Below are positions 41,475 to 59,705 of a DNA stretch of 64,000 nucleotides, piece after piece. The DNA comes from an uncultured virus (IMG/VR IMGVR_UViG_3300048581_000043) (taxonomy: Duplodnaviria; Heunggongvirae; Uroviricota; Caudoviricetes): IMG/VR virus record IMGVR_UViG_3300048581_000043. One strand, 5' to 3'. The notes under the pieces are model-generated. The model was not told where the DNA came from and made no database searches. It saw only the letters and a list, made by a program, of their open reading frames with translations. Each line of letters begins with the position of its first letter. The stretch's first letter is position 1. The position numbers and the translations under genes are program-made.

Positions 41475-41568
41475 TCGCAATAAGTTGTCTTGATGGCTAG
41501 TAGGGAGGGGTTGCATATGCTAGATGCTTCCCCTCCCGGCTGGCATAATCCCTCCTTAAAGAAGAAAA

Positions 41569-42219: not shown

Positions 42220-43121
42220 TGAGTACAAGTTCATTACTTAATTCGATATTCGGTTCTACGATAGGGATTCAAGGCAATGATGCCTGGAAATCTTCTAGTC
42301 GTAGTTCTTTATCAGATAGATCTAATGATACCCTACAAAACTTTCAATATGGTTATGAAACAGATTATTATGGTGGTTGCCAATTATCTGTTTTCTTAGG
42401 AGAAACATGGTTGAATGATATAAATGTCATTCTATACAATGCTACTCAAGCAAAACGTCCATTCTACGGTTATAAATCTCAAAAGTTCGACCTAGTAGCT
42501 AAGGGAACTCAAATCGTAGAAGGTATTTTTGCCATGTACTACACTCATACTAATTATTTAAATATCGCTATGGGACAATATCTTAAAAAGAATTCCAACA
42601 CCAGCAGTAGTCAAATTACTACTGACGATATGGCAAATTTTGCCCAACAAGTACAGAATGATACTTCAGTACTCTATATGTTAGACTCTACAGATCCTTC
42701 TAAACTTGTTCTTCCGAGTATAGAAGAATTAAATGCTCAATCAGCCACATCCTCAGTATCTAACTTATCCTTTGATAATAAAGCTGCTCTTCTTTCAGAA
42801 TACTTTTGGGGTACTTCTGATAATGCTAATGCCAAACCTGATTCAACAGTTATTGAACCGGACAACTTACCTCCATTCAATATCACTATGAATTTTGGCA
42901 GTTATCCCGATGATAGAGTTAAAAATATACCCGATGAAGCTTCCTCTTCGCATACTCTAAAGATAATTAAAAATGTTGAAATTACCGGACATTCTATTCA
43001 AGTGCCAGACGATTCTCCAGTAATAGAAGTCTATTCCTTTATAGCAAGGTCCATTGAAACACCCCTTACTCGTAAGTCCTTAGGTTTGGTTAAAACAACT
43101 AATGGATATCAGGTATCTTGA
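42219..43121 (+). CDS. tail tube-like/initiator paralog
   Basis: YYGGCQ, KRPFYGY, G-x-IVEG, LPPFNI, EVYSFIAR. Confidence 0.65.
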   Translation: MSTSSLLNSIFGSTIGIQGNDAWKSSSRSSLSDRSNDTLQNFQYGYETDYYGGCQLSVFLGETWLNDINVILYNATQAKRPFYGYKSQKFDLVAKGTQIVEGIFAMYYTHTNYLNIAMGQYLKKNSNTSSSQITTDDMANFAQQVQNDTSVLYMLDSTDPSKLVLPSIEELNAQSATSSVSNLSFDNKAALLSEYFWGTSDNANAKPDSTVIEPDNLPPFNITMNFGSYPDDRVKNIPDEASSSHTLKIIKNVEITGHSIQVPDDSPVIEVYSFIARSIETPLTRKSLGLVKTTNGYQVS

Positions 43122-43204: not shown

Positions 43205-43591
43205 ATGGCAGATGATACAGTAACACCAGATGCTTCGCAGGTTGCTACACCGGCTGTACCAACAATTGCAGGTCCTTCTGCAACTGAATTGGCTACAATG
43301 AAAGCGGGATGCAAGAAACTCTATCGTATTGTTTGGGATCCTCAAACAGTATATTATGTTCGTGAATTGAGTCGTATTGAGTATCGTCAAATTCGTGGAG
43401 CAGTTGAAAAGCTTCCTGAAGATGAAGCTGGTCAACGTGGTGATGAACTGATTGTTCAGTCTGCAGTTCTGTGGCCCGCAATCTCTCCAACAGACTATAG
43501 TACTTCTGGTTGTGGTTACATTACCAGTCTAGCCAAGTTGGTACTACTTTACTCTGGTTTCCGCGATCCAGTAGAAATCAGTGTAGTCTAA
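43205..43591 (+). CDS. tail assembly chaperone 1
   Basis: YYVRELSRIEY...VLWP...G-x-ITSL...SGF; synteny. Confidence 0.7.
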   Translation: MADDTVTPDASQVATPAVPTIAGPSATELATMKAGCKKLYRIVWDPQTVYYVRELSRIEYRQIRGAVEKLPEDEAGQRGDELIVQSAVLWPAISPTDYSTSGCGYITSLAKLVLLYSGFRDPVEISVV

Positions 43592-43646: not shown

Positions 43647-44261
43647 ATGACACTTGAAGAAGTATTAGCAAAATACCCAGAAGCAGTTGCGTTTAAAACT
43701 CCTGAAACTAATCATATTGTTTATTATAGGCAGATGAGTAAAGCAGAATTCGATACTATCGTAAGATTAAGTCCAGGTGAAAACGTATCATTTGATGGCG
43801 AAGAATACATATGTAATCATTTAATATTATTTCCAGATATTAAAGATCTGGAAGATCTTACTAATATTGATATCAGAACTCTAGCAGAACAAGTCATTGA
43901 AACCAGTGGATTTTTCAAAATAGAAGATTTTATAGATGCAGTTCGCACATATAGAGAAACCAATAAAATATTAAGTGAACAAGCACTTGTTTTTATAGCC
44001 AAGGCTTTTCCTATATATAAAATAGAAGAACTTGAAGACATGTCCAGTAAACAGATTGCCAGATTGTTAGCATTATCAGAGGACATGATAGGTATGGCCT
44101 TTCCTCTACCAGGTGATATGCCTGAAGAACAAGAGCCAGCAAGACAAAGCCTTGGTCAGATGCTTAAACAAGGTCCCTTAACTGATGAACAAAGAATAAT
44201 GCAAAAACGTAATGTAGAATCGTCTCAAGAAGTACTTAAGCAATTAAAGGAACGTGGTTAA
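43647..44261 (+). CDS. tail assembly chaperone 2 (paralog)
   Basis: YYRQMSKAEF...ILFP...TLAEQV-x-SGF. Confidence 0.7.
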   Translation: MTLEEVLAKYPEAVAFKTPETNHIVYYRQMSKAEFDTIVRLSPGENVSFDGEEYICNHLILFPDIKDLEDLTNIDIRTLAEQVIETSGFFKIEDFIDAVRTYRETNKILSEQALVFIAKAFPIYKIEELEDMSSKQIARLLALSEDMIGMAFPLPGDMPEEQEPARQSLGQMLKQGPLTDEQRIMQKRNVESSQEVLKQLKERG

Positions 44262-47200
44262 TGAAGGGTTATACAACTCGATTAGGCATAGCGGTAGCTG
44301 GTACTTCTGCTTATCTAGGTAAGCGGCTTGCAGACTCACGTCAGGAAGACCTGCAAAAACAAGATCCTTCTACCCTTAATGTCGGCATAGGTGTAGCTAC
44401 TACCGCTGCAGTAATAAGTGGAATGCACTTTGCAGAAGCCAGATATAAGAACCCCTGGTTAACTGGCTTAGGCATGGCAATAACTGCCGGTACAGCTTAT
44501 GCTTCGGGACATATACTGGGAGCAATTAAACAAAAAGAAATTTATGAACAAGGCCAAGCATCTGGTAGTACTCGCATACTAGAGGGTGCTTTAAGTTTAG
44601 GAACACTATATTATTCAGGTAAAGCTCTTGCTCCTTATGCTGCAAGAACAGTTAGTAGACTAGATGCGGTTATTCGTCCCGGCCTTAGAGCATTAGGTTC
44701 TGCTATAGAGTCTTCTGAATTTAAGAATATCGGTGAATTCGGTTCAGTATTTGCACGCAAATTCGAATTAGAAAGAGCAAGTTATTCGGCTGGCGATGGA
44801 CGTTTTCCGATTCAGAATTACTTAGGTCTAATCTCTAATATTAAAAGTGAAGTACTTAATACTGAACTACAAGCTCATGGATTAAATGATGTTTTCCATG
44901 ACATGAAAACTCGTTTTGGTTTAAATGACAGGGATACAGTTCATGGAATAAGATCAGCCTCACTAGCTGATTTAATGAAGGCTCATCGAGAAGCGGTTTC
45001 TCCAGATATTCTCAGAATGTTTGAAACTCGCAATATTCCTCTTAATAATATTGCTTTGGGTTCTGGAGTCTTATTTGATATTAAAGCCAATAAGATACTT
45101 AATCTACAAAGATATACAGCAAAAAATATAGTGAAGGATGCAGTATTAGGTTTCGAAAAAAACTTCCGCATTCCTTTTGCTAACTTTAATCCTATTACAT
45201 TATTAAGACCTCGTGAAGTCTTTGGTGCTGCTGAACAAGCACATTCTTTCCAACATTTTCCAGCGGGAACTCCTCTTGGGCCTCAATTAAAAGCAGGGCC
45301 AAAAGGTGCCGCTTTTATAGGCGGGCATCTTTATGATGAAGAGACTGGTAAGAAACTTACTACTGGTATTATAGTTAAAACTGGATATCGTAAAAAAGAA
45401 ACTGGCGAATGGATTGAAAGTGTTTTCGGTTCAGTTATTCGTCAACGTTATGGTCATGGTGCAGAGGCTATAAAAGATGCACCTCGTAATGGCTTCTTCC
45501 AAAACATGATGGCTAGTCTTGAAATGGATGTTCCTGGTCTTTATAAAACAGGTCATGCCAAAATGGAATCGCAGTGGACATCTTTTTGGAAAGATGTTAA
45601 TAAACGTTCCGCTAAAGATAAAGGATTCTTCGGCTCCCTTAAGAATGTAACTGCTCATATCTTTCATGAAGAAAACATCACTAATGAATTTAAAACAATA
45701 GGTAATAAGTTCGGGGATGTTAATTACGCCTTTGTACCTCATTCTGATCTTCCCGGAATAGGCGCGTTCTGGTTAACTGAAAGACCTGTTCGTTTACTAG
45801 AAACTCTTGGAATAGGAGGATTTGATCCAAGAACAACACGTTCCGCACCTGATGTTATATGGAAGATGTTAACTAAACGTTTCTTACCTATATATGCTGG
45901 TTACAAAACATTACAATTTGCTGATGATATGTCTCACCAGTTTTTTGGATATGGTCCTTCTGATGTACCTATGGATGCGCTGGCTGCCATTACTGTAGGC
46001 AGTTCGTATATGCGTCAAGGACTTGGTATAACAAAAGGTGCCCAATATCTAGAAGATCTAATGCCCGGTTCTATGACCTCAGGAATCTCCGTAGGCAGCC
46101 GTGCCTTAGGTCTACCAATGTTGGCAGGTCTAAAGTTTGGGCCTAAAGCTTTTTGGGCTGGAACTGCAGCTTCCGTATTACTAGGAGGATTTGGAGACGT
46201 AACAAAAACTGCAGAAGAGTATAAAGAAGAATACTACGGAGATAAACGAGTAGGCATTAGAAATGGCGCGTATTGGGAATTGGGTACCCAAGAATTTCAT
46301 GGTGGAAAAATAAAAGAATTTCTACCAAATTATTATCGTAGATTTAAATCCAGATATCAATTTACAGATGTTCAATATGGATCGGAAGCAGAGTATTGGG
46401 GAAACTATTTAGATCCATACCATTATGCTGAAAAACATTATTCTGATAGACCTTATCCTTATGTTAGTAATGGACTAGAGGAAGTTCCTTTTATTGGCCC
46501 CGCAATTGCGCCATTGGGTGGACCTGGTTATTTAATGCACCAAGGATATGAAAAAGAACCTTGGAAATATTCAGGAGCAAGTCCAGAAGCAGCAATACCT
46601 GGTCCCGGCGGTCTTTATTCAAGTCCCGAAACACCTGGTGCATTTGGGGGTGGAGATAATATAGGTGTTGGCGGAGGTCTAGGGGCAGGTGGTACTGGCG
46701 GAGGAACCGGAGAGGGTGCTGAAAACTTCGTATTTATGCAACCTACCCAATTTGGCTATATGGCAGGTGCACCAGAGCCAATGGGAGATAGAGCTGTTGA
46801 TCCCTTATTAAAGGGCTTGCCTAAACGTAAAGCTATTGATCCTAATAGTCCCAAAGGATTAGCTACAGAATCCTTTTATAGAGGATATGAATATTTAGGT
46901 ATATATGGTTGGTTAGGTCAACAAGGAATGACTGACCTTACTGGAAGACAAAGCCTTTTCGATGATCCACAACTAGAATCAGCTCATAGAATAGACTCTG
47001 CTGAACGTTCCTTCTATCAACAAGGCTGGGGAGGAATGCTCCAGACAAACGAACTCTTTAGAAGATTTTTACCTCACCGTCAACGGAATATAGATCTCTA
47101 TAATCCTATTGAAAATAATATGCCCGGTTGGATTCCTGGATCAGAATATATGCAGAATTTTCATCAAGGTGACCCATACAATAAAGCGGGTGATTTCGGT

Positions 47201-49195
47201 GAAATTAGATTACCAGGTGCAGGTTATGAAAAATTCTACACCCCCGGCAAAGGTATTGTTTCTGGAGCACAACAATTAGGAGCTATTAATAGTTCGTATG
47301 CCGGTTCAGAAAAACAATACTCTATGCTTGATGCTTATAGGATTTTAGCTGACGTAGCTCCTTATTCAACTCAATATAAATATTCTCAGCAATACATGAT
47401 GGCTATGTCTAAAGTTGAGATGCTTACACCCGAAGCTGAAGAAGAAAGAAAGTTGATTCGTAAAGAGGTTACTAAAAAGAAAAAGCATTTCGAGTTTACT
47501 CCTAGAAAGTTTACTTCAGGAGATACCTCTACTGAAAACTTAACTGTAGATAAATACTTGGGAAGAGGTTCATTCTTAGCCGAAGGTCATGGAGAACACG
47601 TCTACAAACTTGCTGGACTCAAAGGTATAACTCCAGAAGGTGAAAAAGAAATACTTAAATATTTACATCCAGGAGCTAATGTTTCAGCCCAAGTTTTAGA
47701 TGATGATCGTTATAAAGAAAAAACTTCTACTGTTTTACCAACAACTCCAATTTTAGTGGGTGACTTGAATCGCCGTCTTATAACTGGAGACATGGCAGAA
47801 TATAAAAAAACAGGACCAGGCGATATATTTGATCCTCTTAATAAGATGGTCCAGTATAACGGTATGGAAAGAGCTGTCGGTACGGCATGGGAAAGCATTT
47901 CCCACTCAAATCTCGGATGGGTTTCTGCTAAGTTCTTACATAAAAGAACTCCATTAGAAGAATGGGAAAGAAGTCAAGTCTATGGACGTGAAACAGCGGA
48001 TTGGGGTCATCCAGTCAGAGACTTCTTTATGCCTGTTATAGAACGAGTCAAGTCATTAGGACCTCTTAGTGGTATAGTGGGGGGTGGTGCTGCAGGTTAC
48101 ATGTTTACAAAAGGACGCACTTCTAATATTTTAGGTTCTATAGTAGGCGCCGCACTTGGGGGAGCATTTAGCTTAACTCATAGCAAGTCTTATATTCCAG
48201 ATTATCGCAATAAAGAATGGGACATTAATCAGTATTTTGATATGCTAAAGTTCGTTAAAAATAAAAGATTATATGAATGGGCAAAAGAAAGAGCAATTGC
48301 AGATGAAGGAATTGACCCTGAAAAATTAATTAACTCTGTAGATGCCTCTAAAGATGCCAGACATGCTTTGCAGAAAGCTATCGAACATCAACATGGAGAA
48401 CTTGCTTTATTAGCCAAAGAAGCAAAAACTCCGGAAGATAAAACTTATTATAGAGAAAAGGCTGCTAATCTTGCTAAGAATACATCCTTCTTGCATGCTC
48501 AAAAGTGGACTGAAGATGAAACTCTAACAGCAATGAATCAAGGCTATACTGGTGCTGCATTAGAATATCGCAAAAACTTTATGTCCACTATGTTTGGCGC
48601 CGATCCACATGGTGATTTTGCTTCAATCATGCGAGCAATTCCGACCAAACAAAGAGAATTCTTTCAAGCCTTCGTACAAGCGCCCAAAGAAGATAGAGAA
48701 AAGATCAAAAAAATAACTCCTTTAGGAATGCGTAGATTCCTAGAAGCTAAATGGGGCGAAGATGTAGAAAAGAATCCGGATATCGTTGATTACTTCAAAC
48801 AACACCAATTACCTGGTTTAGATTGGGTAGGCTGGAATCCCGGAGTAGCTTTGGATGATGTGAAGTATCGAACTGTACAACAAGAGGGACTTGAACTTCA
48901 TGATTTTAACCTATGGCAAAGTCAAGGCGCTCAACTCCAGAGAAAACCTTATGTTCCTTTAGTGGATCCTTTAGATACCACCAATAATGTAGGAGATATC
49001 AAACGCGAATTGAATGACATTATGGGCGCTCAAGGTTATAATAACTATGATATATATGTCAATCAACGTCCCGGAGTCAATCAGATTAACTTGCAATTAG
49101 ATGTTAAGTATGCAACAAATGGAGACGCAAAAGATTATATATCTAATAATATTGGCAAAATAGTTAGTCCTGCAATGACTTCATCTTATAGATAA
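44261..49195 (+). CDS. tape-measure-like/ejected protein
   Basis: 1644 aa; follows the chaperones; multiple Gly-rich hydrophobic segments. Confidence 0.6.
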   Translation: MKGYTTRLGIAVAGTSAYLGKRLADSRQEDLQKQDPSTLNVGIGVATTAAVISGMHFAEARYKNPWLTGLGMAITAGTAYASGHILGAIKQKEIYEQGQASGSTRILEGALSLGTLYYSGKALAPYAARTVSRLDAVIRPGLRALGSAIESSEFKNIGEFGSVFARKFELERASYSAGDGRFPIQNYLGLISNIKSEVLNTELQAHGLNDVFHDMKTRFGLNDRDTVHGIRSASLADLMKAHREAVSPDILRMFETRNIPLNNIALGSGVLFDIKANKILNLQRYTAKNIVKDAVLGFEKNFRIPFANFNPITLLRPREVFGAAEQAHSFQHFPAGTPLGPQLKAGPKGAAFIGGHLYDEETGKKLTTGIIVKTGYRKKETGEWIESVFGSVIRQRYGHGAEAIKDAPRNGFFQNMMASLEMDVPGLYKTGHAKMESQWTSFWKDVNKRSAKDKGFFGSLKNVTAHIFHEENITNEFKTIGNKFGDVNYAFVPHSDLPGIGAFWLTERPVRLLETLGIGGFDPRTTRSAPDVIWKMLTKRFLPIYAGYKTLQFADDMSHQFFGYGPSDVPMDALAAITVGSSYMRQGLGITKGAQYLEDLMPGSMTSGISVGSRALGLPMLAGLKFGPKAFWAGTAASVLLGGFGDVTKTAEEYKEEYYGDKRVGIRNGAYWELGTQEFHGGKIKEFLPNYYRRFKSRYQFTDVQYGSEAEYWGNYLDPYHYAEKHYSDRPYPYVSNGLEEVPFIGPAIAPLGGPGYLMHQGYEKEPWKYSGASPEAAIPGPGGLYSSPETPGAFGGGDNIGVGGGLGAGGTGGGTGEGAENFVFMQPTQFGYMAGAPEPMGDRAVDPLLKGLPKRKAIDPNSPKGLATESFYRGYEYLGIYGWLGQQGMTDLTGRQSLFDDPQLESAHRIDSAERSFYQQGWGGMLQTNELFRRFLPHRQRNIDLYNPIENNMPGWIPGSEYMQNFHQGDPYNKAGDFGEIRLPGAGYEKFYTPGKGIVSGAQQLGAINSSYAGSEKQYSMLDAYRILADVAPYSTQYKYSQQYMMAMSKVEMLTPEAEEERKLIRKEVTKKKKHFEFTPRKFTSGDTSTENLTVDKYLGRGSFLAEGHGEHVYKLAGLKGITPEGEKEILKYLHPGANVSAQVLDDDRYKEKTSTVLPTTPILVGDLNRRLITGDMAEYKKTGPGDIFDPLNKMVQYNGMERAVGTAWESISHSNLGWVSAKFLHKRTPLEEWERSQVYGRETADWGHPVRDFFMPVIERVKSLGPLSGIVGGGAAGYMFTKGRTSNILGSIVGAALGGAFSLTHSKSYIPDYRNKEWDINQYFDMLKFVKNKRLYEWAKERAIADEGIDPEKLINSVDASKDARHALQKAIEHQHGELALLAKEAKTPEDKTYYREKAANLAKNTSFLHAQKWTEDETLTAMNQGYTGAALEYRKNFMSTMFGADPHGDFASIMRAIPTKQREFFQAFVQAPKEDREKIKKITPLGMRRFLEAKWGEDVEKNPDIVDYFKQHQLPGLDWVGWNPGVALDDVKYRTVQQEGLELHDFNLWQSQGAQLQRKPYVPLVDPLDTTNNVGDIKRELNDIMGAQGYNNYDIYVNQRPGVNQINLQLDVKYATNGDAKDYISNNIGKIVSPAMTSSYR

Positions 49196-49203: not shown

Positions 49204-52200
49204 ATGGCTTCTCAGTTTGACTGGAAGACAATTAATCGTTTAAATAAACTCTTTCCCGAATCTACTATTTCTAAAAGTGATTTGCCCACTTTTGGAGCAG
49301 GATCAGATATATTCTATAATGGCGTTCGTCGAGTCGGATATAAGTATAAATATAAAGGCGCTATACAAGACTTAGGTTCTTATACCAACTCCCTTTTAAA
49401 AGAAATATTAGACTTACCTAAAGCCGAAGGGCAAGAAGCTCTTCGTGGCTTTATGGGAACATTTAGAGAGCAACATGTTCTAAAGATGCCAGTCGGCTTC
49501 ATGCAAGGAATAGCTGATGAGATGGCAGTCTCTGAAGCTGTTAGAGATATTGATGCTGAACAAGCTTTCTCAAAACTACCAAGATCAGAACAATTCAATT
49601 TTAAGAAAAACTGGATAGTCGAAAATGCCGCACAAGGTCATGGTTGGTCTGGTAGCGGAGAGTCTATTGGAGACTTCTTCTTTTCAGATAAAAGCACGAT
49701 GCCTTTGGGATTCGGTAAAGGTACACAAGAAGAAGTTCGTAAATATTTAACTCTTTATAATGCTATGGATCTAGGAGAATTTGGAACTTCTCCTACCACT
49801 TTAACAAATTTGGCAATCGAAAATGCCCATAGACATGCCAGTTCTATAGCTTTTAATTCAAAGAATACTGCTATTGACCAAGTAGCCGAACAAACGATGA
49901 GTCGGTACTTGATTAAAGATGTACAGTTTATTGCAGATGATCCCAATCTGATTGGTAATCCAATCTTTTTTAAACATGGATCTTTCTCTGGAGAAAAATA
50001 CTATACTCCAAAAGAATTAACATTTAGTCCACTCAGTTTACAATCTCATCTCGGTAAAGAATCTGCAATGTTACCGGGAATCATGTCTAAGATACACGCA
50101 GGCAAAGGTACTTTCACAGCACAAGAAATGACTGCAATTAGATCAGCCTCTTTATTAGATAATAATGCGGAATTCACTGCCTTACTTGAACAAGGTAACT
50201 CGCCTACTGAAGCTTTGGAAGCTATTAATCGTAGTCCAGAAATGCATTCTAAAATTAATTCTGTAGCTTTTGAAGACGGTAAAGTTAGATTACAATATGG
50301 ACAAGAACAACGTATTGGACCAGGAACAAAGTTTTCTACTGCAGAACAAAAGGCCTTGGGTGGATTTTTACCTAAAAAGGTTTGGGAAGGAAGGGGTTAT
50401 AATCAAGCAGCTGATGCTGTAATAGCTCCTATTTCTGGTGCGGAATCTCAACGGCAATTGTTGCCTTTCTGGAACGCTATTGATATATGGGCCACCAAAC
50501 GTGGAGACGTTACAACTAAACTTAGAAATGCTCATAGTTTAGTAGAAATAATCAACCAACACGCTGATATTCAGGCTGCAACTTCTGGTATCAAGTACGC
50601 TCAACTTAATGAACAAGCTATTAGAATTAATGTCGCCAATGAATTTAAACTAACTCCTAAGTTTATCGAAGATGCAGCTCGTATATTAAATCCACAAGAA
50701 AGAAATGAACTATTAAGATCTGCGCGACCCGTATTACCTCAATACATCAGTGTATTAAACCAAAGTGATTTTTCTACTCATGGTAAAATTGAAAAAGCTG
50801 GAATTCAAGATGTTGTAGGCTTAATGAACCGAGATATGCCTTTATCATCAAGGGCAGTAATGTCAGATATTGGGGCAAGACCTTTAGCTAAAGAATACCA
50901 ACAATTCTTTGGTGATGTACTAGGAAAAAATGAGTTTGGTGGAATTCCCTTACCTCCAGAAGAATTCGAAAGATTAGCAAGACAACAAATTTCTTATGCT
51001 AATGGAGAGATAGTAGGAGGAGAAGGTTCAAAATTATTTGACCCTAATCTTTCTGCTATTGAAAAATCCCAACGGTATTCTCTTGATCTCGGCAGAGACT
51101 ATAGTGCTAAAGTAGGCAAGACTAATACTGTTACTTTAAATAAAGTTCCAGTTTTATCCATGAATGCAAGACAGATGACAGCTATGCCAGGATCGGGAAC
51201 CGTATGGGCAGGAGATGTTAATAAACCATTAATAGATTTAGTTAAAGCTAGACAATATGGTACTCCCGATCAAATCCAAGCAACTTTACAAAATTATCTG
51301 GATGCTACCGCTAATCTTTCAGGCAAAGGTAGATCAATAGTAGAGGAAGGGCTAAAAACAAGACTACAAGGAACACGAGGAACTGGTAACTTTCTAAGTT
51401 CTGAACAAGTAAACTTAATAACTCAACAGTTTACTGAAGGTTCTGGCAACCAGAGAGGTATAGTCGCCCTTACACTAGAACAAGCAAAACATATTTTTGG
51501 TGATATGACAACCGATGAGTTTAGATCTAAAGTAAAAACGGGTTTATATGGCACGTTACAGAGATATCCTTCGCTTACTGGTTATGCCCCCTTCAGAGTA
51601 GGTATGCTAACTAAAAAAGTCATGAAGGCGGGGCCTTCTTATGGCAAAAAAGGCATAATGGGAACAGCTGATATAGGTTCGGCTATTGAAGAGGATCTTG
51701 ATGCCGATATGGTAACAGCTCTTAACCTAGAAAACCTACAACAAGGATTAATGTCAGAAGCTGAAAATGTACATAACAAATTCTCTGCTCCTGGTGGACT
51801 TTATGAAGTAGCTCAAGCCAAAGCAGAGACTAAGGCTATGCCAGAGACGCGGTTAGGTGAAAGTGCATGGCAAAGAGCTAAGCGTTTATCTATGACTGAA
51901 GAACCTACAACTACCGAAGTAGGAATGGCATTATTGCAAAAAGCAGAAGGAACAGGCAAATTCAACGTTGCTTCTCTTCGTGTATTAGAGGGCGCTCAAC
52001 AATTAGGTTATCAGAATGCTGCAGACCTACATACTTATGTTGCCAAACTAAGTCAAAAAGGGTATAATGCCAAACTAAGAGGAATGAGCAAAGATGTTTT
52101 AGAAGCTAACATTTCTGATATATTTTGGGGTTCTACAACCAAAGCTGAAAGAGCTATGCAACTAGGACCATTACTTGAGGGAATCGTTCCTGAAGGTCAG

Positions 52201-52914
52201 GATACAACTAAAATAGCTCATCAAATAATTGAAGCTCATAGGATTGGTTCAAAAGGTGGAGTTATAAGCGACTTACTTTCTCTTAATCGTCCTCAATCTT
52301 TCGAGAACATAGGAGTAGCTCTCAACTCTGCTCTTGAAAGAGCGGAACGTTCTCCCATAGGTTCTGATATTGCTAAATCAGGAATGGTACATGCTATCGA
52401 TATGTTAGGTGCTCAAAATGCCAGTTTAGCTCAAGATGGTATGAAAGGTATAGAGAAATCGGCCAAAGAAGGATTAGGATCTTTTTCTAGATACATTAAA
52501 GAAAGTACTGGAGATTTCGTCGCCGGATTAAGACAAGGTAAAGGATGGACTTCTGTTGCAATAGGAGCAGCAGTCTTGGCAGGTGTTGGATTAGGAATGC
52601 GTAAGCCTGGAACCATGATAGTTCAAGGTGAGAATGCAGAAAATCACCAATCTCCACCCGCAGAAGCTCCCATGATAACTCCAAGAAAAGAGTCAAAATT
52701 ACGTCTAATGACCGAAAATCAATATGATGTTCGTGTTAAAATAAGAGAAGCAAGACGTCAACATTCCTCGAAATTTGTTGATTTCGTCAATGCTATTTCT
52801 CACAAATACGATTCTCAAACAAACGCACAAGTAAATATACGTGATGATTCTTCTGAGCAAGATTATCAAAAAATCTTTGCTGATCAATATCGTCGTTCAA
52901 TGAGGCAAGGTTAA
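49204..52914 (+). CDS. putative single-chain two-barrel (beta/beta-prime-like) virion RNA polymerase
   Basis: RIGPGTKFSTAEQKA...ADAVIAP, LSGKGRS...LKTRLQG, LQRYPSL and DLDAD in RNAP order. Confidence 0.75.
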   Translation: MASQFDWKTINRLNKLFPESTISKSDLPTFGAGSDIFYNGVRRVGYKYKYKGAIQDLGSYTNSLLKEILDLPKAEGQEALRGFMGTFREQHVLKMPVGFMQGIADEMAVSEAVRDIDAEQAFSKLPRSEQFNFKKNWIVENAAQGHGWSGSGESIGDFFFSDKSTMPLGFGKGTQEEVRKYLTLYNAMDLGEFGTSPTTLTNLAIENAHRHASSIAFNSKNTAIDQVAEQTMSRYLIKDVQFIADDPNLIGNPIFFKHGSFSGEKYYTPKELTFSPLSLQSHLGKESAMLPGIMSKIHAGKGTFTAQEMTAIRSASLLDNNAEFTALLEQGNSPTEALEAINRSPEMHSKINSVAFEDGKVRLQYGQEQRIGPGTKFSTAEQKALGGFLPKKVWEGRGYNQAADAVIAPISGAESQRQLLPFWNAIDIWATKRGDVTTKLRNAHSLVEIINQHADIQAATSGIKYAQLNEQAIRINVANEFKLTPKFIEDAARILNPQERNELLRSARPVLPQYISVLNQSDFSTHGKIEKAGIQDVVGLMNRDMPLSSRAVMSDIGARPLAKEYQQFFGDVLGKNEFGGIPLPPEEFERLARQQISYANGEIVGGEGSKLFDPNLSAIEKSQRYSLDLGRDYSAKVGKTNTVTLNKVPVLSMNARQMTAMPGSGTVWAGDVNKPLIDLVKARQYGTPDQIQATLQNYLDATANLSGKGRSIVEEGLKTRLQGTRGTGNFLSSEQVNLITQQFTEGSGNQRGIVALTLEQAKHIFGDMTTDEFRSKVKTGLYGTLQRYPSLTGYAPFRVGMLTKKVMKAGPSYGKKGIMGTADIGSAIEEDLDADMVTALNLENLQQGLMSEAENVHNKFSAPGGLYEVAQAKAETKAMPETRLGESAWQRAKRLSMTEEPTTTEVGMALLQKAEGTGKFNVASLRVLEGAQQLGYQNAADLHTYVAKLSQKGYNAKLRGMSKDVLEANISDIFWGSTTKAERAMQLGPLLEGIVPEGQDTTKIAHQIIEAHRIGSKGGVISDLLSLNRPQSFENIGVALNSALERAERSPIGSDIAKSGMVHAIDMLGAQNASLAQDGMKGIEKSAKEGLGSFSRYIKESTGDFVAGLRQGKGWTSVAIGAAVLAGVGLGMRKPGTMIVQGENAENHQSPPAEAPMITPRKESKLRLMTENQYDVRVKIREARRQHSSKFVDFVNAISHKYDSQTNAQVNIRDDSSEQDYQKIFADQYRRSMRQG

Positions 52915-55900
52915 TGTCTAACAACTCCGTAATCAATTCAAGCGCTAATAATGAACGTACATCATTTCAATATGATCCTCGTGACTTGCCTGGAGCTACT
53001 AGAATTGGTAATGTCTGGTTACATGTTCCTCCAATTAACCTACGATTTGGTCATGCTAAAGCTACAGATTTGCGTAAAGTATTAAGACAATCTGGACCCG
53101 AATATGTTAAGTCAGGACGTGGAGTTAAGACAGTAGATATAGATCTAGTGTTCTCTGGCGCCAATCAAATCAATAATAAACTAGCAAGAATCTTAGCTAC
53201 TCTAAGACGCACTCCTTTTATTATAGTTAATAATGAAACTATTTGCAAAGAGATGAATTATCAATCAAATAATGCAATTAATAATGACGTTCCTATGGCT
53301 GTTACTGCCTATACTTTTCGCACTGAATTAGAATTGCCCGACACTATTATCATGCATCTTTCAATGATGTTCTTTAATTTTCTTCCTTATGTTAAGACAT
53401 TCCAGTATTTAAAACATACAGGAGACTTTAACAAAGATGGCACTCCCACACTTGTACCTTGCCAAGGAATCGAAGATTCTAACCTTTATCGGCAATATGT
53501 AGATGCCTTACTTAAAAAGAGTGTGGAAATTGGCGACTTCATGTTTGGTGGAGAAATTGATTCGGCAGGTTCTCTTAGTCCTGAAGAACTTGCTAAACAA
53601 AAGAATGCTAAAAATGAATTCAATTCGCGTATTGATTTTCAAAGATCTGATGTGGTACGCAATGGATCAGTTATTCGTTTAACGGATAATTATGATTCAG
53701 CTAAACAAGATCTTGTAATTGGTTACCACGTATTTAGTCTTGCTCAAGCATTAGATTTAAAACTTGGAGCATATAAAAGTCGTCGTCTTCATAAATGGGT
53801 CTGGACCGAAGATGATTTGCGTAAAGATATGAAACTCTGTGTAACTAACTTACCTGATAGTATGTCGGTTACGCAAGCAGTTACTCAATACTATGAAGAA
53901 CTCATGACCTTACCTGTTATTAATAATGGTGCCAAATATCCCAAAAAGTTTAGGATCTCCACTAATAATACCTGCGTAATTCATGGACTTGCAGTTCGTC
54001 GTTCTATTAATCTAACCCCATTACCTATACTTAGTTGCGAAACTCCTACAATACAATATACTGGCGGAGCAGTAACAGATATAAGTTTGACATTAGTCGT
54101 AAATGACGAAAACTTTATTGAGCAATTAAGAGCAGTAGATAGCAGTATCGAAGAGTCCTCTCGAAATAAACGGCATTTAGCCGGAACAGAAATGTCATAT
54201 ATTGAGAATGATCTAGTCAATCTTAATGGAACTTTTACTATTCATACTGGAGATATGGATATTCAAAATATTCCCGGTAACCCCGGTAGTTATATGGTTA
54301 ACTGGAACTTTAATGAACAAACAGAAGGTCTGTATGCCTTAACTTCTCCTCCTAATGAAATTCCCAAACTCAAACAAACCATGCTTGAGCAAATATTGAC
54401 TGTATATCGTAATTGGCAATATACGGATGCTTATAATAAAAAACGCCATGATTTAAACTTTGATGATATCGATCCTAGTTACATTAAGATTTTCGTTATT
54501 CCATCACTAATACGTTCTGTGCGTAATGGATTCGTAGAGTTTATGAAACAGAATGGATATGTCAATAGTTCTGATTTCACAAACGAATCTATTTCAGGTG
54601 TACTCGATGCTGCCACAGCCATGATAACTCAAGGACAAGTTCAAACTATCAATTTTGATTATCTATGGGAAGACCCTCCCTTTGTAGATGATGGAAGTGT
54701 TTCTGAAACCGCAGATGATCAAGAGACAAGATATGAAACCGCATATAATAAAATATGGCATCTAATGACTGGTCAACTTGGTACAAGTGATATTAATAAG
54801 GATACTAATACAACTACTCTTTATCAACAGTTTAAATATTACCTATATGCTCAATTGGCTACTTTAAGTGGCGTTAATGCTACTAATACTAATACCGAAA
54901 CAGGGATGATTAAAGGAACAGCAGCTTTATTGGCTCGTTCAAATAATAGACGTTTTGAATTGTTTTTAAGACAACCTAATATTCGCGAATATGAAATTAA
55001 AAAAATGATGGGCAATACCTCTTCTGGAACTAGTACTGGATCCGGTTATTACTGGACTAGTATGATGGGAGAGAAAGTGTACTATGATGATCTAAGTATA
55101 AGAGATTACGTTAGTAGTTTAGCCGATGCATGCGCCGAATACACTATTGATGAGAAACCTTTATTTAAACAACCCACTCATCCTGACTTAACAGAAGCAG
55201 AACTGAGACAAGGTTCTATCTATTTATTACGCGGTGATGATGTTTCAAATGCGGCTTTTAAAGAATTAATGCGACCTCATATAGAAAAATGGATCGCTCG
55301 TCACAGTTCTTCTGGAGCCAATATCGGATCTGCCAAAGATGCATTTTCTACTTTCTTAAATGCTACTTCAAAACTTACATGTTATCCTGATCTGGGTTTA
55401 CCTTTTGATTATGATATTGAAAAAGCGGATGGTACAAAAACAGGAAAGTTTATTACTTTCACAGAACCGGATTTTTATATTCAATCCTATAGTATAAAAG
55501 ATATTGGCGGGATTGATGATAGTGATATTAGTTTAGTTGCAATTAAAAAACGTTTAGCATTGGCTAGTCAAGGAATTCCTACTCTGGCAATAACTGGCAA
55601 TACAGTTCCTTCCATCGAACGTACTAATGGAATGGTTAATAATGATATTCGTAATTCTGAACCGTATAAACCATTAGGTTCAACAAGCAAAACAACTTCT
55701 TCGCCTAAAGATATTCAACAACGCGAAATCGACTTACTTAATAACTCTATTAATAAAGAACTAGCAACTACTAAAGCTTATTACAAAAATGCTCATGGTG
55801 GAAATATTTCACCTGGAGAAATGGCTAAGCTTCGTAATAATGAAACCGATTTTAGCATGTTAAGTGATGCTGAATTATTCATGACAACCGCTCTTGCTAA

Positions 55901-58900
55901 AACCGTAGGGAACATAGCAGGAGAAACATCTCCTAAAACTATAGATGAAGCCATGAGAGAACACAAAATCTTTCATTCCACCTACATGGACTACAATCCA
56001 GACTTCGAGCATACTCTTCCTAATATAATCGAAAAAGCTCAAAATCAGATACTAGAAAACCCCAAATACTATAGTATGGCTGGAGCTTATCCTACCTTTA
56101 AACTTTATTTCCGTGCCGAGAACCAAAATGAATGGTTATTATTCGATAACTTTTTCGATTATCGTATGATAAGTAGTATTCGTATCTTTAAGGATAAAGG
56201 TAGTCCTTCTACATCAGCAGTAATAGAAATGGTTAATCAAAAAAATGTACTTAATGACTTGACTGCCTTATTAGCCAAATCCTCTCATCTAACTGCTGAT
56301 GGAAATAATGCATCTGCCAATAAGTTAGATTACACCTCTGATCAGGGTGGAAGTAAACCTTTGGCTAAACTTATGCTTCAAGCAGGTACGGCTGTTTCTA
56401 TAAGAGTAGGTTATAATTCCGATCCTGATCTATTATCAACATTATTCAATGGATATATCACCGGAGTAGATCCTGGCGAAGCATTTACTATTGAATGTCA
56501 ATCATATGGAGCAGAATTAGATACAGAATCCAATATGACCTCTATTACTGGAAGATTCTGCCATCCAGGGCAGTATTTGTGGATGATGATGACAGATCCT
56601 AAAGTTAAACACTTAGGACATCTTTTTGAAGCAAAGACTTTGCCTAATTCTGCTAAAGATTATTTAGACTGGGCAGCATTTGGCCATAACATCTATATTA
56701 ATGACACTATGGAACCTGGCAAGCTTCGATACCTTCAGGCTTATAATGCCGAGAACATGTCTAAATGGGATGTATTTCAAGATATGGCCGCAGCACATCC
56801 TGGTTATATTTGTCAAGTAGTCCCATATGGAAATCGTGAAACAGTTTTCTTTGGTAAGCCAGATCACTTCTACACTTATACAGATGATCCAGGCGTAACT
56901 CGTAACTACTCATTACCTTACAAGAACGATTCTGGCACTCCCTCTTCTCTTAAAACCTTTATAAATAGTTGTATTAATGGTGCAGCTGATAGTTATGGTC
57001 CTCAACCAGCAGGATTAGACGTAATGTCTACTGCCGATTATAAAACTGCTTGGAACTCGCTTCAACTAGGTAATTTTAGTGTTAATCTAAATTACATGCA
57101 ATGGAAAGCTTATGGAGATTCGATTAAAGATATTATCGACATCAATAAGCAAGCTATTTCACAAACAAAAAAGTATGATATATTTGTAGCTTTACAATAC
57201 TGTCGTTTAGTAGAATACTTAACTGCTCTAGATGCAGATCCTGCAGTAGGCAATATTCAATATAGGCAAATCAGTTTAACAGGGCAGGCAGATTCAGTAG
57301 ATTCTTTGTCTAGCAATGCTTTAAAATCAGCACAAGCAAGTCAAACAACGGCTCTTAAAACTTACTTGCAAAGTTTGTCTGCTTCAGAACTGACTAACAC
57401 AATCCAAACTGTTATCAATAATTACTCTGAAGACCCCTCTATCAATCCTTCTAGTGCTGCACAATACGATAATAAGTTAACTAAATTACGTGCAGACGTA
57501 TTAAAAATACAAACCAATCCATCGTATATGACGTCATTTGATATAAGCAAATATGACAATAAAATTCAAGCAGCATTTACCAATAGTCTAAAAAACAGAA
57601 CTGTCCATCTTCAATATTTTCTAACTGGAGGCACTGAAGCAAATAGGGAGTTGGGAGCTACTTGGTCTAATATGAGTAAGAAAAGTTTTCAAGATTCCAG
57701 TTACGATTTTAATATTCTAGAAGTTAATCCAGACTTACAATCTGCCGAAGAACTAATGTTGAATTATAAAAACACAAAAGACCCCGATATTATAAGTCAA
57801 GGTATGTTCTCTGATTCTACTCATGTAACCCGAGCTTTTTTCAAAGCAGCTCAAGCAACTTATAATGAAACCGGAATAGCCAGTCCTATAGCTTGCGCTT
57901 GCTGGTATAGAATTGCATTTCTTTTATTTGGCCAACTCAGAAAGAAAACTGGTCAAAAAGGTAATCAGACAGTAACCTACATGAATGATATAAATAACTT
58001 GCAAGACTATAGTTCCACAGGTCTTTTCTTTGATTCATTAGGGATACAAGTTTTCAATACAGATGACGCGGGAGTTACTACAGACCAATTAGGAACAGTA
58101 AAATTTAATGGACCAATATTTCGCACGGATCTTAAAGCTCATATAGCTTTGCGTAATATAATCCTGGGAAAACTTACTAGCTTCTCTGCCGATCTACAAG
58201 AATTGCTTTTCACTCTAGGACAAGCTCCTAATAAAAAAACCTTTCGTAACTATAAAATTCTTACAAGTCACGAACACATTATTAATAACTCTATTAAATT
58301 AGACTATATAGGTATGTGGAATGCTGTTAAATTAAAATATAAAAGACATGATTTTATGGACGTATATATCCCCAGTCCTGTAATAGGCGTTGCAAATGCA
58401 GTTGTTACTGCGGGTTCTTATGGAATGCTCAACCTGGGTTGGGGAGACAAACCTAATAGTTATGTCATACAAGCTGGTCAAACATTAGACGACCGAATTA
58501 CTCGCGAAATAACAATACCTATAGAAAATGCAAGGACTGTAGCACAAGCTCGAAACTATTCTACCTCTTTATTAGCAGAGGGTATTCGTAACATGTACTC
58601 TGGGAATCTTGTTATACGAGGAGATCCAGAACTGAAGCCTACAGACATTTGTTTCATCTATGATGACTACAATGCCATGTATGGAGCTATTGAAGTCAAA
58701 TCTGTTTTAAACTTGTTTACACCCGATACAGGATACATTACAGTAATAGAACCACAAGCCTATGTTGAACCTTTAGGTATAAACTTTAGTGCTGCTGCCT
58801 TAATCTGCGAAGTCTTCAATGATATTTTAACTGCTGTAGCTGTTATAGGAGCCGCTGAAACATTCGGAGCTTCCCTCGGTCTGTTAGGAGAAAAAGCGGC

Positions 58901-59705
58901 ACTTACTACAGCAGTAAAAGAATTAACTACAACAGACAAAGCCTTGAATACAGTTAAATCTCTTTTTAGTCAAGGCGCAAGTGTAACTGATGAAGTCTCT
59001 GGGTGGTTAGGTTCAAAAGGAACTTTGGCAGGCAAGTTCTATGCTCAGGCATATAATGATGGATTAAAATCAACCATAACTTCTTTTGCCAATAGTTATA
59101 AACTTAATGTTTCTTATGCCGATGTTGTAAACGGTGTTAATGCAATCAGGGCTACAGAAGGAACTGCTGCAGTAACCGATCTATATGGAGTTTCTACATC
59201 AGAAATATCTTCTGCACTAAAAACATTATGTCATGGACAAATCAATGCTGATGGAACTGCTGTTGCTACTGATACGATGAATAAAGCAGTTGATGCATTC
59301 GCTTCTAAGTTAACTTTAACTTCTGGAGTTGCTGCGGCTAAAACCGCTTCTGCAGTTGGTGTTTCTACACTTAAGGATTACACAGGTTTAATCAAAGGAA
59401 CTTTTGCCAAAGCAAGTGGCGTAACCACTTTAAATATGATAAAAACAATGGCGGGCGCAGGCACTGTAGCTTACATTCAAATGTTTGCAGGTATGGATGA
59501 TAGTAACTATGCGTGTCCATTAAGAATCTCTCCTCTTAGTTGGAGAAATGACCCCTTTGTTTGTGGATTAGATGGACTTACCAGAGAGTCCGGTATTCTT
59601 AACTATGTTAAAGGGCAATGGAAATTATACATGGGTTCTGTTACTACAATCTCAGATTATATTACTCAATACATGGATGGCATAAGTCAGACCTTAGATT
59701 TGTGA
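52914..59705 (+). CDS. large baseplate hub/tail-associated protein
   Basis: 2263 aa; SIRVGY...LFNGYIT...IECQSYG and YSGNLVIRGDPELKP hub-like segments; synteny. Confidence 0.65.
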   Translation: MSNNSVINSSANNERTSFQYDPRDLPGATRIGNVWLHVPPINLRFGHAKATDLRKVLRQSGPEYVKSGRGVKTVDIDLVFSGANQINNKLARILATLRRTPFIIVNNETICKEMNYQSNNAINNDVPMAVTAYTFRTELELPDTIIMHLSMMFFNFLPYVKTFQYLKHTGDFNKDGTPTLVPCQGIEDSNLYRQYVDALLKKSVEIGDFMFGGEIDSAGSLSPEELAKQKNAKNEFNSRIDFQRSDVVRNGSVIRLTDNYDSAKQDLVIGYHVFSLAQALDLKLGAYKSRRLHKWVWTEDDLRKDMKLCVTNLPDSMSVTQAVTQYYEELMTLPVINNGAKYPKKFRISTNNTCVIHGLAVRRSINLTPLPILSCETPTIQYTGGAVTDISLTLVVNDENFIEQLRAVDSSIEESSRNKRHLAGTEMSYIENDLVNLNGTFTIHTGDMDIQNIPGNPGSYMVNWNFNEQTEGLYALTSPPNEIPKLKQTMLEQILTVYRNWQYTDAYNKKRHDLNFDDIDPSYIKIFVIPSLIRSVRNGFVEFMKQNGYVNSSDFTNESISGVLDAATAMITQGQVQTINFDYLWEDPPFVDDGSVSETADDQETRYETAYNKIWHLMTGQLGTSDINKDTNTTTLYQQFKYYLYAQLATLSGVNATNTNTETGMIKGTAALLARSNNRRFELFLRQPNIREYEIKKMMGNTSSGTSTGSGYYWTSMMGEKVYYDDLSIRDYVSSLADACAEYTIDEKPLFKQPTHPDLTEAELRQGSIYLLRGDDVSNAAFKELMRPHIEKWIARHSSSGANIGSAKDAFSTFLNATSKLTCYPDLGLPFDYDIEKADGTKTGKFITFTEPDFYIQSYSIKDIGGIDDSDISLVAIKKRLALASQGIPTLAITGNTVPSIERTNGMVNNDIRNSEPYKPLGSTSKTTSSPKDIQQREIDLLNNSINKELATTKAYYKNAHGGNISPGEMAKLRNNETDFSMLSDAELFMTTALAKTVGNIAGETSPKTIDEAMREHKIFHSTYMDYNPDFEHTLPNIIEKAQNQILENPKYYSMAGAYPTFKLYFRAENQNEWLLFDNFFDYRMISSIRIFKDKGSPSTSAVIEMVNQKNVLNDLTALLAKSSHLTADGNNASANKLDYTSDQGGSKPLAKLMLQAGTAVSIRVGYNSDPDLLSTLFNGYITGVDPGEAFTIECQSYGAELDTESNMTSITGRFCHPGQYLWMMMTDPKVKHLGHLFEAKTLPNSAKDYLDWAAFGHNIYINDTMEPGKLRYLQAYNAENMSKWDVFQDMAAAHPGYICQVVPYGNRETVFFGKPDHFYTYTDDPGVTRNYSLPYKNDSGTPSSLKTFINSCINGAADSYGPQPAGLDVMSTADYKTAWNSLQLGNFSVNLNYMQWKAYGDSIKDIIDINKQAISQTKKYDIFVALQYCRLVEYLTALDADPAVGNIQYRQISLTGQADSVDSLSSNALKSAQASQTTALKTYLQSLSASELTNTIQTVINNYSEDPSINPSSAAQYDNKLTKLRADVLKIQTNPSYMTSFDISKYDNKIQAAFTNSLKNRTVHLQYFLTGGTEANRELGATWSNMSKKSFQDSSYDFNILEVNPDLQSAEELMLNYKNTKDPDIISQGMFSDSTHVTRAFFKAAQATYNETGIASPIACACWYRIAFLLFGQLRKKTGQKGNQTVTYMNDINNLQDYSSTGLFFDSLGIQVFNTDDAGVTTDQLGTVKFNGPIFRTDLKAHIALRNIILGKLTSFSADLQELLFTLGQAPNKKTFRNYKILTSHEHIINNSIKLDYIGMWNAVKLKYKRHDFMDVYIPSPVIGVANAVVTAGSYGMLNLGWGDKPNSYVIQAGQTLDDRITREITIPIENARTVAQARNYSTSLLAEGIRNMYSGNLVIRGDPELKPTDICFIYDDYNAMYGAIEVKSVLNLFTPDTGYITVIEPQAYVEPLGINFSAAALICEVFNDILTAVAVIGAAETFGASLGLLGEKAALTTAVKELTTTDKALNTVKSLFSQGASVTDEVSGWLGSKGTLAGKFYAQAYNDGLKSTITSFANSYKLNVSYADVVNGVNAIRATEGTAAVTDLYGVSTSEISSALKTLCHGQINADGTAVATDTMNKAVDAFASKLTLTSGVAAAKTASAVGVSTLKDYTGLIKGTFAKASGVTTLNMIKTMAGAGTVAYIQMFAGMDDSNYACPLRISPLSWRNDPFVCGLDGLTRESGILNYVKGQWKLYMGSVTTISDYITQYMDGISQTLDL

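Follow-up and report, generated by a model that had tools for sequence, protein, structure and literature searches.

A Putative Single-Chain RNA Polymerase of the Two-Barrel Type Encoded among the Tail Genes of an Uncultured Tubulin-Encoding Myovirus

The P0001 Gene and Its Family

The 64,000-nucleotide stretch of DNA analysed here (hereafter, the window) comes from an uncultured virus of the Caudoviricetes (IMG/VR record IMGVR_UViG_3300048581_000043) and includes, in its tail module, a gene designated P0001, for which an original prediction, made from the letters alone, had proposed a single-chain RNA polymerase (RNAP) carried in the virion. The open reading frame (ORF; Table 1) starts with ATG, encodes a protein of 1236 amino acids (aa), and is the only long frame in its interval in the ORF list and translation, confirming the predicted gene as real. 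P0001 starts 8 nt past the stop codon of an upstream gene encoding a 1644-aa protein, and its own stop codon overlaps the ATG of a downstream gene encoding a 2263-aa protein (TAATG); both junctions are tight and operon-like. A second virus record of 39.9 kb (G001; locus L001) carries a copy of P0001 with 100% identity; the CheckV completeness of this record (18%) suggests a genome of roughly 220 kb, of which the window represents only about 64 kb. From its N-terminus, the protein presents a β-like module (residues ~164–419), a connector (~420–700), a β′-like module (~705–842), a helix (903–934), a hydrophobic segment (1116–1132), and a conserved stretch formed by the last ~75 residues. The motif positions given in the original prediction were all exact, i.e., Q369–P409 with K376 and K383 at 50308–50430, L705 at 51316, R787-Y-P-S-L from 51562, and D831-L-D-A-D835 at 51694–51708.

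The P0001 family is tiny. A word-indexed search yielded five relatives besides P0001 itself, and an exhaustive HMMER profile search with no length filter yielded 18 proteins among 1.84 billion cluster representatives. These 18 members span 101 to 1321 aa and are either about 1200–1320 aa long or fragments; the full-length relatives share about 20–31% identity with P0001, and pairwise identity in the family ranges from about 19% to 31% (median 26%). Conservation was assessed in a 16-row alignment, of which 15 rows are non-redundant (P0004 and L004 represent one and the same protein).

Only nine of the ~1236 columns were invariant across the 16 rows (G780, R787, P789, G793, D831, D833, D835, G918, and K957). 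Seven of these nine fall in the barrel that carries the R-x-P and D-x-D-x-D motifs, while G918 and K957 are located in helices after the barrel. K376, K383, and R417 were invariant in all 14 rows covering their region, with the two lysines always 7 residues apart. K913 and T917 were kept in at least 90% of rows; the G-K ... L-K-T-R-L-x-G-x-R-G motif was conserved, although not invariant, and a further conserved block (PG.G.Q..VRK..TL) was found at residues 171–183, within the β-like module. R787-x-P789 lies 41 residues before D831, and the pair satisfies the published filter [RK]xPx{20,100}DxDxD (Supplementary Data 4 of PMC10770324). Given the composition of P0001, ~0.11 D-x-D-x-D matches would be expected by chance, and ~0.03 with an [RK]-x-P located 20–100 residues upstream; the motif matches by themselves are weak evidence, and it is conservation and predicted fold that raise them above chance. 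Because the invariant columns coincide with R-x-P, D-x-D-x-D, the two lysines, and R417, selection in this family, as read from the alignment, targets exactly the residues required of a two-barrel polymerase.

The homologues keep the aspartates, as D831, D833, and D835 are present in 16 of 16 rows; the original prediction had also singled out a D-x-D-A-D site as unusual, and this part did not hold. Family members differ widely in the residue at the fourth position of the triad (Q, A, D, K, N, G, S, or I), and published viral polymerases vary at this position as well (DNDKD, DQDPD, and DVDID in Supplementary Data 4, PMC10770324); D-x-D-A-D was thus rejected as a remarkable site.

The hydrophobic segment predicted near the C-terminus was recovered as the top hydropathy window; residues 1116–1132 represent the sole strongly hydrophobic 17-residue window of the protein (Kyte-Doolittle mean of 1.81, as compared to 0.79 for the next best window) and are flanked by conserved G-K-G-W and R-K-P-G motifs. 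The C-terminal 140 residues, with the hydrophobic segment between G-K-G-W and R-K-P-G and with a terminal domain, are the best conserved part of the family; the conserved tail (residues ~1161–1236) presents the pattern P-R ... Y-x-V-R-h-K ... F-V-x-L ... I-x-D-D-S ... D-Y ... I-F. As judged from the alignment, this C-terminus would fit a structural contact, possibly docking in the tail or baseplate.

Predicted Fold and Sequence-Level Searches

Two overlapping pieces of P0001 (residues 300–1010 and 100–480) were folded separately with AlphaFold2 (AF2), each with the family alignment. The model of residues 300–1010 had a mean predicted local distance difference test score (pLDDT) of 76.5 and a predicted template modelling score (pTM) of 0.66. 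The largest RNAP subunits accounted for 50 of the 50 Foldseek matches listed against the Protein Data Bank (PDB), with β′ of Escherichia coli (4mex_J; 2.4e-4) and the corresponding chain of phage AR9 (7s01_d; 4.8e-4) at the top, and residues 573–1010 presented VIA Z scores of 11.1 (root-mean-square deviation (rmsd) of 4.4, 357 residues aligned) and 10.8 against residues 22–1258 of E. coli β′. In a Foldseek-independent comparison of this model with 48,161 representative chains, two-barrel polymerases took the first 13 places, including QDE-1 (Z = 9.5), human Pol I (9.2), vaccinia and AR9 (both 9.1), Pol II and an archaeal enzyme (both 9.0), β′ of Mycobacterium tuberculosis (8.9), P74-26 gp62 (8.7), and RDR2 (8.5). 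The top 10 polymerase Z values lie within 1 unit of each other, so that no clade within the superfamily could be assigned. Bare double-psi β-barrel (DPBB) domains came next in the ranking and aligned with residues 722–842 (e.g., the designed protein 7dww_A; Z = 7.7, rmsd of 2.3, 86 of 86 residues). The single-chain enzymes QDE-1, P74-26 gp62, and RDR2 align over residues 66–711 of the model, a range that spans both barrel regions and gives an indirect hint that the aspartate triad and the lysines may share one active site. Double-psi barrels are thus predicted, with the β′-like half matching both bare DPBB domains and two-barrel polymerases.

In this model, the aspartate triad is placed in the loop between a helix (822–827) and a strand (836–841). 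The β′-like barrel is followed by a 32-residue helix (903–934) and then by a helix (939–957) that ends at the invariant K957; the alignment with β′ continues through helix 903–934 to the end of the model, and this helix is a candidate for the bridge helix. Residues 350–420 were poorly modelled in this piece (pLDDT of 44–61), which would be expected if the β-like module begins upstream of the piece, near the conserved block at residues 171–183.

The model of residues 100–480 had a mean pLDDT of 67.4, with residues 239–409 mostly between 75 and 90. For this half, all 50 of the 50 Foldseek PDB matches listed were second-largest RNAP subunits, led by AR9 (7s01_C; 1.9e-4), vaccinia (7amv_B; 7.9e-4), and E. 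coli β (8igr_I; 9.4e-4), and residues 164–419 aligned with residues 663–1110 of E. coli β with a VIA Z score of 6.8. Without Foldseek, the top five of the 48,161 chains were also second-largest subunits (Z = 6.0 to 5.6); the other rows match terminal helices only. The model places K376 in a strand (376–379), K383 in another strand (382–389), and R417 at the start of a helix (412–432). As judged from the aligned ranges (model residues 65–320 against β residues 663–1110), an insertion of ~200 residues between the block at 171–183 and K376 seems to divide the β-like barrel. The order proposed in the original prediction, i.e., a β-like part fused to a β′-like part, was borne out, since the N-terminal and C-terminal pieces, although folded independently, each matched another of the large subunits, in the sequence expected. 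The models and the alignment show how each half is predicted to fold, which half comes first, and that the catalytic-type residues do not vary. The predicted barrels and the retained aspartates support the central interpretation of the original prediction.

No sequence-level search connected P0001 with a described polymerase. A tblastn search against 50,697 phage records yielded no match, and the best ESM Atlas score (0.84) was inside the range reached by shuffled proteins. Family PF05183 of RNA-dependent RNA polymerases (RdRP/YonO type) was unmatched at E values up to 5 in all 16 members, and no tape-measure family was matched by P0001 in Pfam or PHROGs or by any of the 16 members in the Pfam scan. 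One match to an MraW methylase, found in only one of the 16 members (residues 437–500), was dismissed as chance (19.9 bits, as compared to a cut-off of 27). At the level of sequence, P0001 is not detectable as a member of any described polymerase family.

Genomic Context and the Tape-Measure Slot

P0001 is part of a long, rightward late operon of the contractile-tailed phage type, in which three giant genes (encoding proteins of 1644, 1236, and 2263 aa) follow each other (Table 1). The view that the window comes from a tubulin-encoding myovirus agrees with its gene content, as sheath, tube, and Baseplate_J genes are present and the tubulin gene was confirmed. This gene (18736–20283, +) is TubZ/PhuZ-like, with matches to Pfam Tubulin (2.1e-18) and TubZ-like_C (1.3e-06) and to phrog_4733 'tubulin PhuZ' (4.5e-09); nothing in the window points to multisubunit polymerases of the kind that characterises chimalliviruses. 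A scan of 49 other ORFs of the window revealed neither a second polymerase nor a sigma factor, and no α, ω, or σ partners are evident in the window.

Table 1. Coordinates of P0001, of its predicted modules and motifs, and of neighbouring genes in the window.
Feature	Position	Strand	Basis or remark
P0001, whole gene	49204..52914	+	candidate single-chain two-barrel RNA polymerase
β-like (second-largest-subunit-like) module, residues ~164–419	49693..50460	+	AF2 model, structure searches
Two-lysine motif, then D-h-V-h-x-P ... R (Q369–R417): K376, K383, D404, R417	50308..50454	+	alignment, model
β′-like double-psi β-barrel (DPBB-A), residues ~705–842; G-K ... L-K-T-R-L-x-G-x-R-G at start	51316..51729	+	AF2 model
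R787-x-P789	51562..51570	+	invariant in 16/16 rows
D831-x-D833-x-D835, putative metal-binding triad	51694..51708	+	invariant in 16/16 rows
Long helix 903–934 (K913, T917, G918), bridge-helix candidate	51910..52005	+	model secondary structure
Single hydrophobic Gly/Ala-rich segment, residues 1116–1132	52549..52599	+	hydropathy, alignment
Highly conserved C-terminal tail, residues ~1161–1236	52684..52911	+	alignment
Terminase	from 26489	+	window annotation
Portal	from 30159	+	window annotation
Major capsid protein	from 34819	+	window annotation
Tail sheath	39320-40765	+	PHROG/Pfam matches
Tube-like paralogues (n = 3)	40830-41474, 41569-42219, 42219-43121	+	PHROG/Pfam matches
Two small genes in chaperone position	43205-43591, 43647-44261	+	chaperone role suggested by position only
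P0023, 1644 aa, homologue of 0305phi8-36 gp145	44261..49195	+	BLASTP 1e-75 and 5e-45
P0024, 2263 aa, baseplate hub with lysin-family region	52914..59705	+	phrog_20474 6e-55
Baseplate_J protein, among baseplate genes	from 60998	+	Pfam

As judged by the tail sheath, the phage is a distant relative of Moorella phage MTATph1, Bacillus phage 0305phi8-36, and Acinetobacter phage ME3, whose genomes measure 177–235 kb. A shared gene order, consisting of the sheath, tube paralogues, genes in chaperone position, a gp145-type giant, a variable middle giant, and a hub with a lysin region, was seen in the window, in a metagenomic relative (L002), and in 0305phi8-36, MTATph1, and ME3; P0024 also matches the ME3 'baseplate hub protein' (BLASTP 9e-13 and 2e-10). 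According to the GenBank record of 0305phi8-36, mass spectrometry identified gp145 in virions; in the same record gp146, also detected in virions by mass spectrometry, is labelled 'hypothetical tape measure protein'. P0001 occupies the slot that 0305phi8-36 fills with this putative tape measure. The assignment of the slot is tentative in the literature itself, and within the 0305phi8-36 lineage conservation of the slot proteins is reportedly confined to their last 60 residues (Hardies et al. 2007, PMC2147016). A C-terminal kinship between P0001 and gp146, suggested by eye, was rejected, as it was no better than 900 shuffled controls.

The description of P0001 as a stand-alone polymerase holds in part. 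No relative longer than 1321 aa was found, and there is thus no long tape-measure fusion within HMMER reach; the qualification is that, in related phages, the position of the gene is the tape-measure slot. Should P0001 not measure the tail, P0023 is the other tail-measuring candidate; P0023 has hydrophobic Gly-rich segments (residues 39–55 and 1290–1306) and a Gly-rich low-complexity stretch near residue 800.

Elsewhere in the window, two of the three paralogues in tube position (40830–43121, +) match phrog_9206 strongly (1e-44 and 8.6e-35) and the third weakly (0.0011); the label of this family, 'major head protein', looks misleading, as the 0305phi8-36 equivalents carry the annotations tail tube and tube paralogue. 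Immediately upstream of the packaging genes, an endonuclease VII gene (Pfam, 3.3e-18) overlaps a Holliday-junction-resolvase-like gene (phrog_9019, 1.9e-16) at 23418–24384 (+). A stretch of 959 bp (5984–6942), located between leftward small genes, contains no ORF of at least 50 aa, and the window as a whole yielded no tRNA genes.

Structural Leads in Cultured Phages

In BFVD, a collection of predicted viral structures, the top matches to the β′-like model are not annotated as polymerases. They are an unnamed protein (3.4e-12 over 901 alignment columns), an uncultured siphovirus protein labelled 'Minor tail protein' (4.3e-10), a fragment of an uncharacterized ME3 protein (8.5e-7), and a fragment of an MaMV-DC protein (4.8e-6); polymerase subunits annotated as such, from giant viruses, poxviruses, and phages, rank below these four. 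In Acinetobacter phage vB_AbaM_ME3, the slot occupied by P0001 in the window holds ME3_36 (1603 aa; locus L008 27807–32618), a 'hypothetical protein' with R-E-P ... G-D-H-D-Q-D at residue 1217 and, at residue 1482, a hydrophobic segment. The ME3 fragment in BFVD is probably this slot protein, as judged by organism, fragment size, and motifs; ME3_36 itself is probably a polymerase of the P0001 structural type that lacks annotation as such, its sequence similarity to P0001 not being significant. In Microcystis phage MaMV-DC, the hypothetical protein ORF65L (1677 aa; locus L010 9225–14258, minus strand) carries R-T-P ... N-E-G-D-A-D-G-D at residue 1352 and is located outside the tail module; this protein, tied to its BFVD match by the same three features, may be an unrecognised single-chain polymerase in a cyanophage group. 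The ME3 and MaMV-DC matches represent leads to cultured systems rather than results.

Interpretation and Alternative Explanations

We propose that P0001 belongs, as a single polypeptide of very divergent sequence, to the two-barrel RNAP superfamily and that, as suggested by its gene position, it is a virion protein that would be assembled with the tail, expelled on contraction, and used to transcribe the first genes; taken as a whole, this reading seems somewhat more probable than its competitors combined. Its parts differ in strength. It is very likely that P0001 has a true two-barrel polymerase fold and that its active-site signature is intact, and its activity as an RNA polymerase is likely. 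Gene position and the C-terminal hydrophobic segment make delivery with the virion fairly probable, while delivery specifically through the tail, as a tape-measure-slot protein, is close to an even matter that we would place slightly on the doubtful side.

Under this proposal, the β-like module would supply K376, K383, and R417, while the β′-like barrel would supply R787-x-P789 and the triad D831/D833/D835, allowing P0001 to polymerise RNA on phage DNA. P0001 would be assembled with the tail as a virion protein, as suggested by the position of its gene, which has the gene of the gp145-like virion protein on one side and that of the hub on the other. Sheath contraction would expel the protein ahead of or with the DNA, the hydrophobic segment at 1116–1132 would engage the membrane, and P0001 would then transcribe the first genes entering the cell independently of the host polymerase, as proposed for P23-45 gp96.

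Several observations weigh against this proposal. A folded ~100-kDa α/β enzyme is hard to fit in the lumen of a tail tube, and the passage or storage of a globular enzyme in the tube, as well as tail measurement without a long helical body, are difficult to explain. The alignments behind the models are shallow (14–15 rows) and the fold scores are moderate (Foldseek E values of about 1e-4); in the model of residues 100–480, 86 of 381 residues are under a pLDDT of 50, and the Z scores of the β-like half (at most 6.8) are below the value of ~8 that the aligner rates safe. Because of this low score, the β-like assignment rests on the uniform matches and on the invariant lysines, not on the score. 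Searches of Pfam and PHROGs with P0001 as query gave no relevant family; Pfam searches with the 16 members at E values up to 5 gave no RNAP family, including no Rpb1 or Rpb2 domains; and searches of the PDB by phmmer and by family profile gave noise only (aminotransferase-type matches, E of at least 0.22). Comparisons of P0001 with the slot proteins gp146, MTATph1 CDS0027, and ME3_36 by BLASTP, hhalign, and hmmsearch gave nothing significant, and no candidate promoter emerged from a direct-repeat search of positions 1–26500 or from 8-mer enrichment in 28 intergenic regions.

The globular shape predicted for residues 100–1010, which are mixed α/β and not the long helical rod of a tape measure, together with the lack of a matched Pfam tape-measure family, would also suit an active two-barrel polymerase that is present in the virion as a head-packaged protein or as an ejection protein of a baseplate cavity, comparable by analogy to the phi14:2 gp66 cargo or to the phiKZ virion polymerase; the position of the gene in the tail module would then reflect co-expression only. 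This explanation draws on the same fold and conservation evidence as the one we prefer. However, the gene is found exactly between the gp145-like protein and the hub in five of the five phages or loci examined, and this slot is the putative tape-measure position in 0305phi8-36 (PMC2147016). The C-terminal hydrophobic segment and conserved tail also recall the C-termini of tape measures, and the restriction of conservation among the slot proteins of the 0305phi8-36 lineage to their last 60 residues points the same way (PMC2147016). We consider delivery as head or baseplate cargo unlikely.

Less likely again is a polymerase that is made during infection and is absent from the virion, whether a middle or late transcriptase, a primase-like enzyme, or an RNA-dependent enzyme like QDE-1 or YonO, and that is encoded in a late operon by accident. 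QDE-1 and RDR2 are indeed among the best structural matches (Z = 9.5 and 8.5), and 0305phi8-36 has a separate gene of the RdRP family, orf99, outside its structural module (PMC2147016 and PMC7824862). On the other hand, translational coupling to the tail and hub genes would imply late expression, which would be odd for a transcriptase needed earlier, and the hydrophobic segment and conserved C-terminal tail would have no role in a soluble transcriptase; PF05183, moreover, is unmatched at E values up to 5 in each of the 16 members.

The slot and the C-terminal features would also suit a structural tail protein (i.e., a tape measure or an ejection channel) of polymerase descent that is no longer catalytic, and a minority of the members of neighbouring ESM Atlas clusters match tape-measure families, with a score (0.82) within the shuffled range; such a protein is very improbable here, as a relic would not keep D-x-D-x-D, R-x-P, two lysines, and R417 as exactly its invariant residues at ~20–30% identity. 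Least probable of all is an artefact of chance motifs and over-interpreted models, which could invoke the shallow alignments, the moderate scores, and the missing sequence-level link to known polymerases, but which is opposed by two separately folded halves that match two different large subunits in the right order in every one of the 50 matches listed for each, by Foldseek-independent searches that rank polymerases first for both halves, by invariant columns that coincide with catalytic motifs, and by a combined chance expectation of ~0.03 for the motifs.

Returning to the proposal of a tail-delivered polymerase, a wider form of it can be offered only tentatively and is, in our estimate, rather doubtful. 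In the jumbo lineage related to 0305phi8-36, the slot protein would be a working polymerase that is built into the tail by way of its conserved C-terminus, fired through the tube when the sheath contracts, and anchored by its one hydrophobic helix at the inner membrane, where it would transcribe and perhaps pull in the genome; very divergent, unannotated single-chain polymerases of the same structural type would also occur in cultured phages, represented by ME3 gp36 and MaMV-DC ORF65L. If this wider form holds, two-barrel polymerases that are tail-borne or hidden in some other way would be a common strategy of myoviruses, and the Thermus siphovirus would be no isolated case.

Polymerases that enter the cell with phage DNA free the infection from the host transcription machinery. 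The types of entering polymerase carried by phages include the T7-like enzyme of N4, the multisubunit enzymes of phiKZ and AR9, the gp66 enzyme of crAss-like phages, and the tape-measure fusion of P23-45. With the P0001 family, a two-barrel enzyme on a single chain would be found among the tail genes of a jumbo myovirus; its sequence has diverged so far that it escapes searches of Pfam, PHROGs, and PDB sequences alike. It also raises testable questions, namely how a folded enzyme of ~100 kDa travels or stays in a contractile tail and what measures the tail in this lineage; the structural matches in ME3 and MaMV-DC point to cultured systems in which such questions may be tested.

Comparison with Known Polymerases

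The multisubunit and split RNAPs of jumbo phages (AR9 and the phiKZ non-virion enzyme) and of bacteria provided the best structural matches of both P0001 halves (including 4mex_J and 7s01_d for the β′-like half and 7s01_C, 8igr_I, and 7ogp_C for the β-like half). While these enzymes consist of separate subunits, with β and β′ together comprising about 2700 aa, P0001 is one polypeptide of 1236 aa with a β-like part followed by a β′-like part; unlike the multisubunit enzymes, it has no detectable Pfam RNAP domain and presents a C-terminal hydrophobic segment.

The QDE-1/RDR and YonO-type enzymes (PF05183) resemble P0001 in carrying both barrels on a single chain, and QDE-1 (7y7p_A) was the top Foldseek-independent match (rmsd of 4.8, 253 residues aligned, model residues 68–711 against QDE-1 residues 722–1143). 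P0001 differs from this type in that PF05183 was unmatched in 16 of 16 family members. Phage 0305phi8-36 has a YonO-like polymerase, orf99 (Iyer et al., PMC7824862), that is located outside the tail module (PMC2147016); orf99 is a different gene from the one in the slot, while P0001 is located in the structural module. The occupant of the slot in 0305phi8-36, gp146 (32259–39872 of locus L006), shares with P0001 its position and, by eye and without statistical support, C-terminal features, namely a hydrophobic segment with R-K-P after it and an I-S-D-D-like motif; it differs in its length (2537 aa), in having no DxDxD, and in showing no significant similarity to P0001.

Among virion-delivered enzymes, phi14:2 gp66, a single-chain two-barrel polymerase of a crAss-like phage with a DFDxD site (Drobysheva et al., 10.1101/2020.03.07.982082), is like P0001 in its non-canonical fourth triad position and is matched structurally (6vr4_B; Z = 6.2, rmsd of 5.0, 309 residues aligned). 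The gp66 protein is unlike P0001 in its size (~2180 aa), in belonging to a podovirus, and in being encoded beside other cargo proteins; its score is also weaker than those of other polymerases, and no sequence similarity was found.

In a literature search, the P0001 family, ME3 gp36, and MaMV-DC ORF65L were nowhere described as polymerases, with the limit that the family alignments in Supplementary Data 3 of PMC10770324 lie outside this search and may already include them; the other supplements of PMC10770324 contain no mention of Acinetobacter, Microcystis, ME3, 0305phi8, Moorella, or LMM01.

The closest concept for P0001 is the tape-measure-fused polymerase of Thermus phage P23-45, gp96, in which a virion RNA polymerase forms the N-terminus of the tape measure protein (Chaban et al., Nat Commun 2024, PMC10770324). 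The gp96 protein is like P0001 in being a single-chain two-barrel polymerase at the tape-measure position of the tail module, in having a DxDxD preceded by [RK]xP, in presenting hydrophobic or transmembrane elements downstream, and in its proposed transcription of the first genes entering the cell (PMC10770324). In the structure comparison, gp96 reached a Z score of 7.2 against the P0001 model (8h2n_A; rmsd of 4.9, 250 residues aligned) and of 6.2 in a second crystal form, lower than multisubunit β′, QDE-1, and P74-26 gp62; no sequence similarity was detected in the PDB profile search. Their architectures differ, as gp96 is a protein of 5002 aa with an N-terminal polymerase in a very long siphovirus tape measure (PMC10770324), while P0001, encoded by a contractile-tailed jumbo phage, is mostly polymerase in its 1236 aa. 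Taken together, the predicted folds and the conservation described above identify the P0001 family as a new, very divergent putative family of single-chain two-barrel RNA polymerases.

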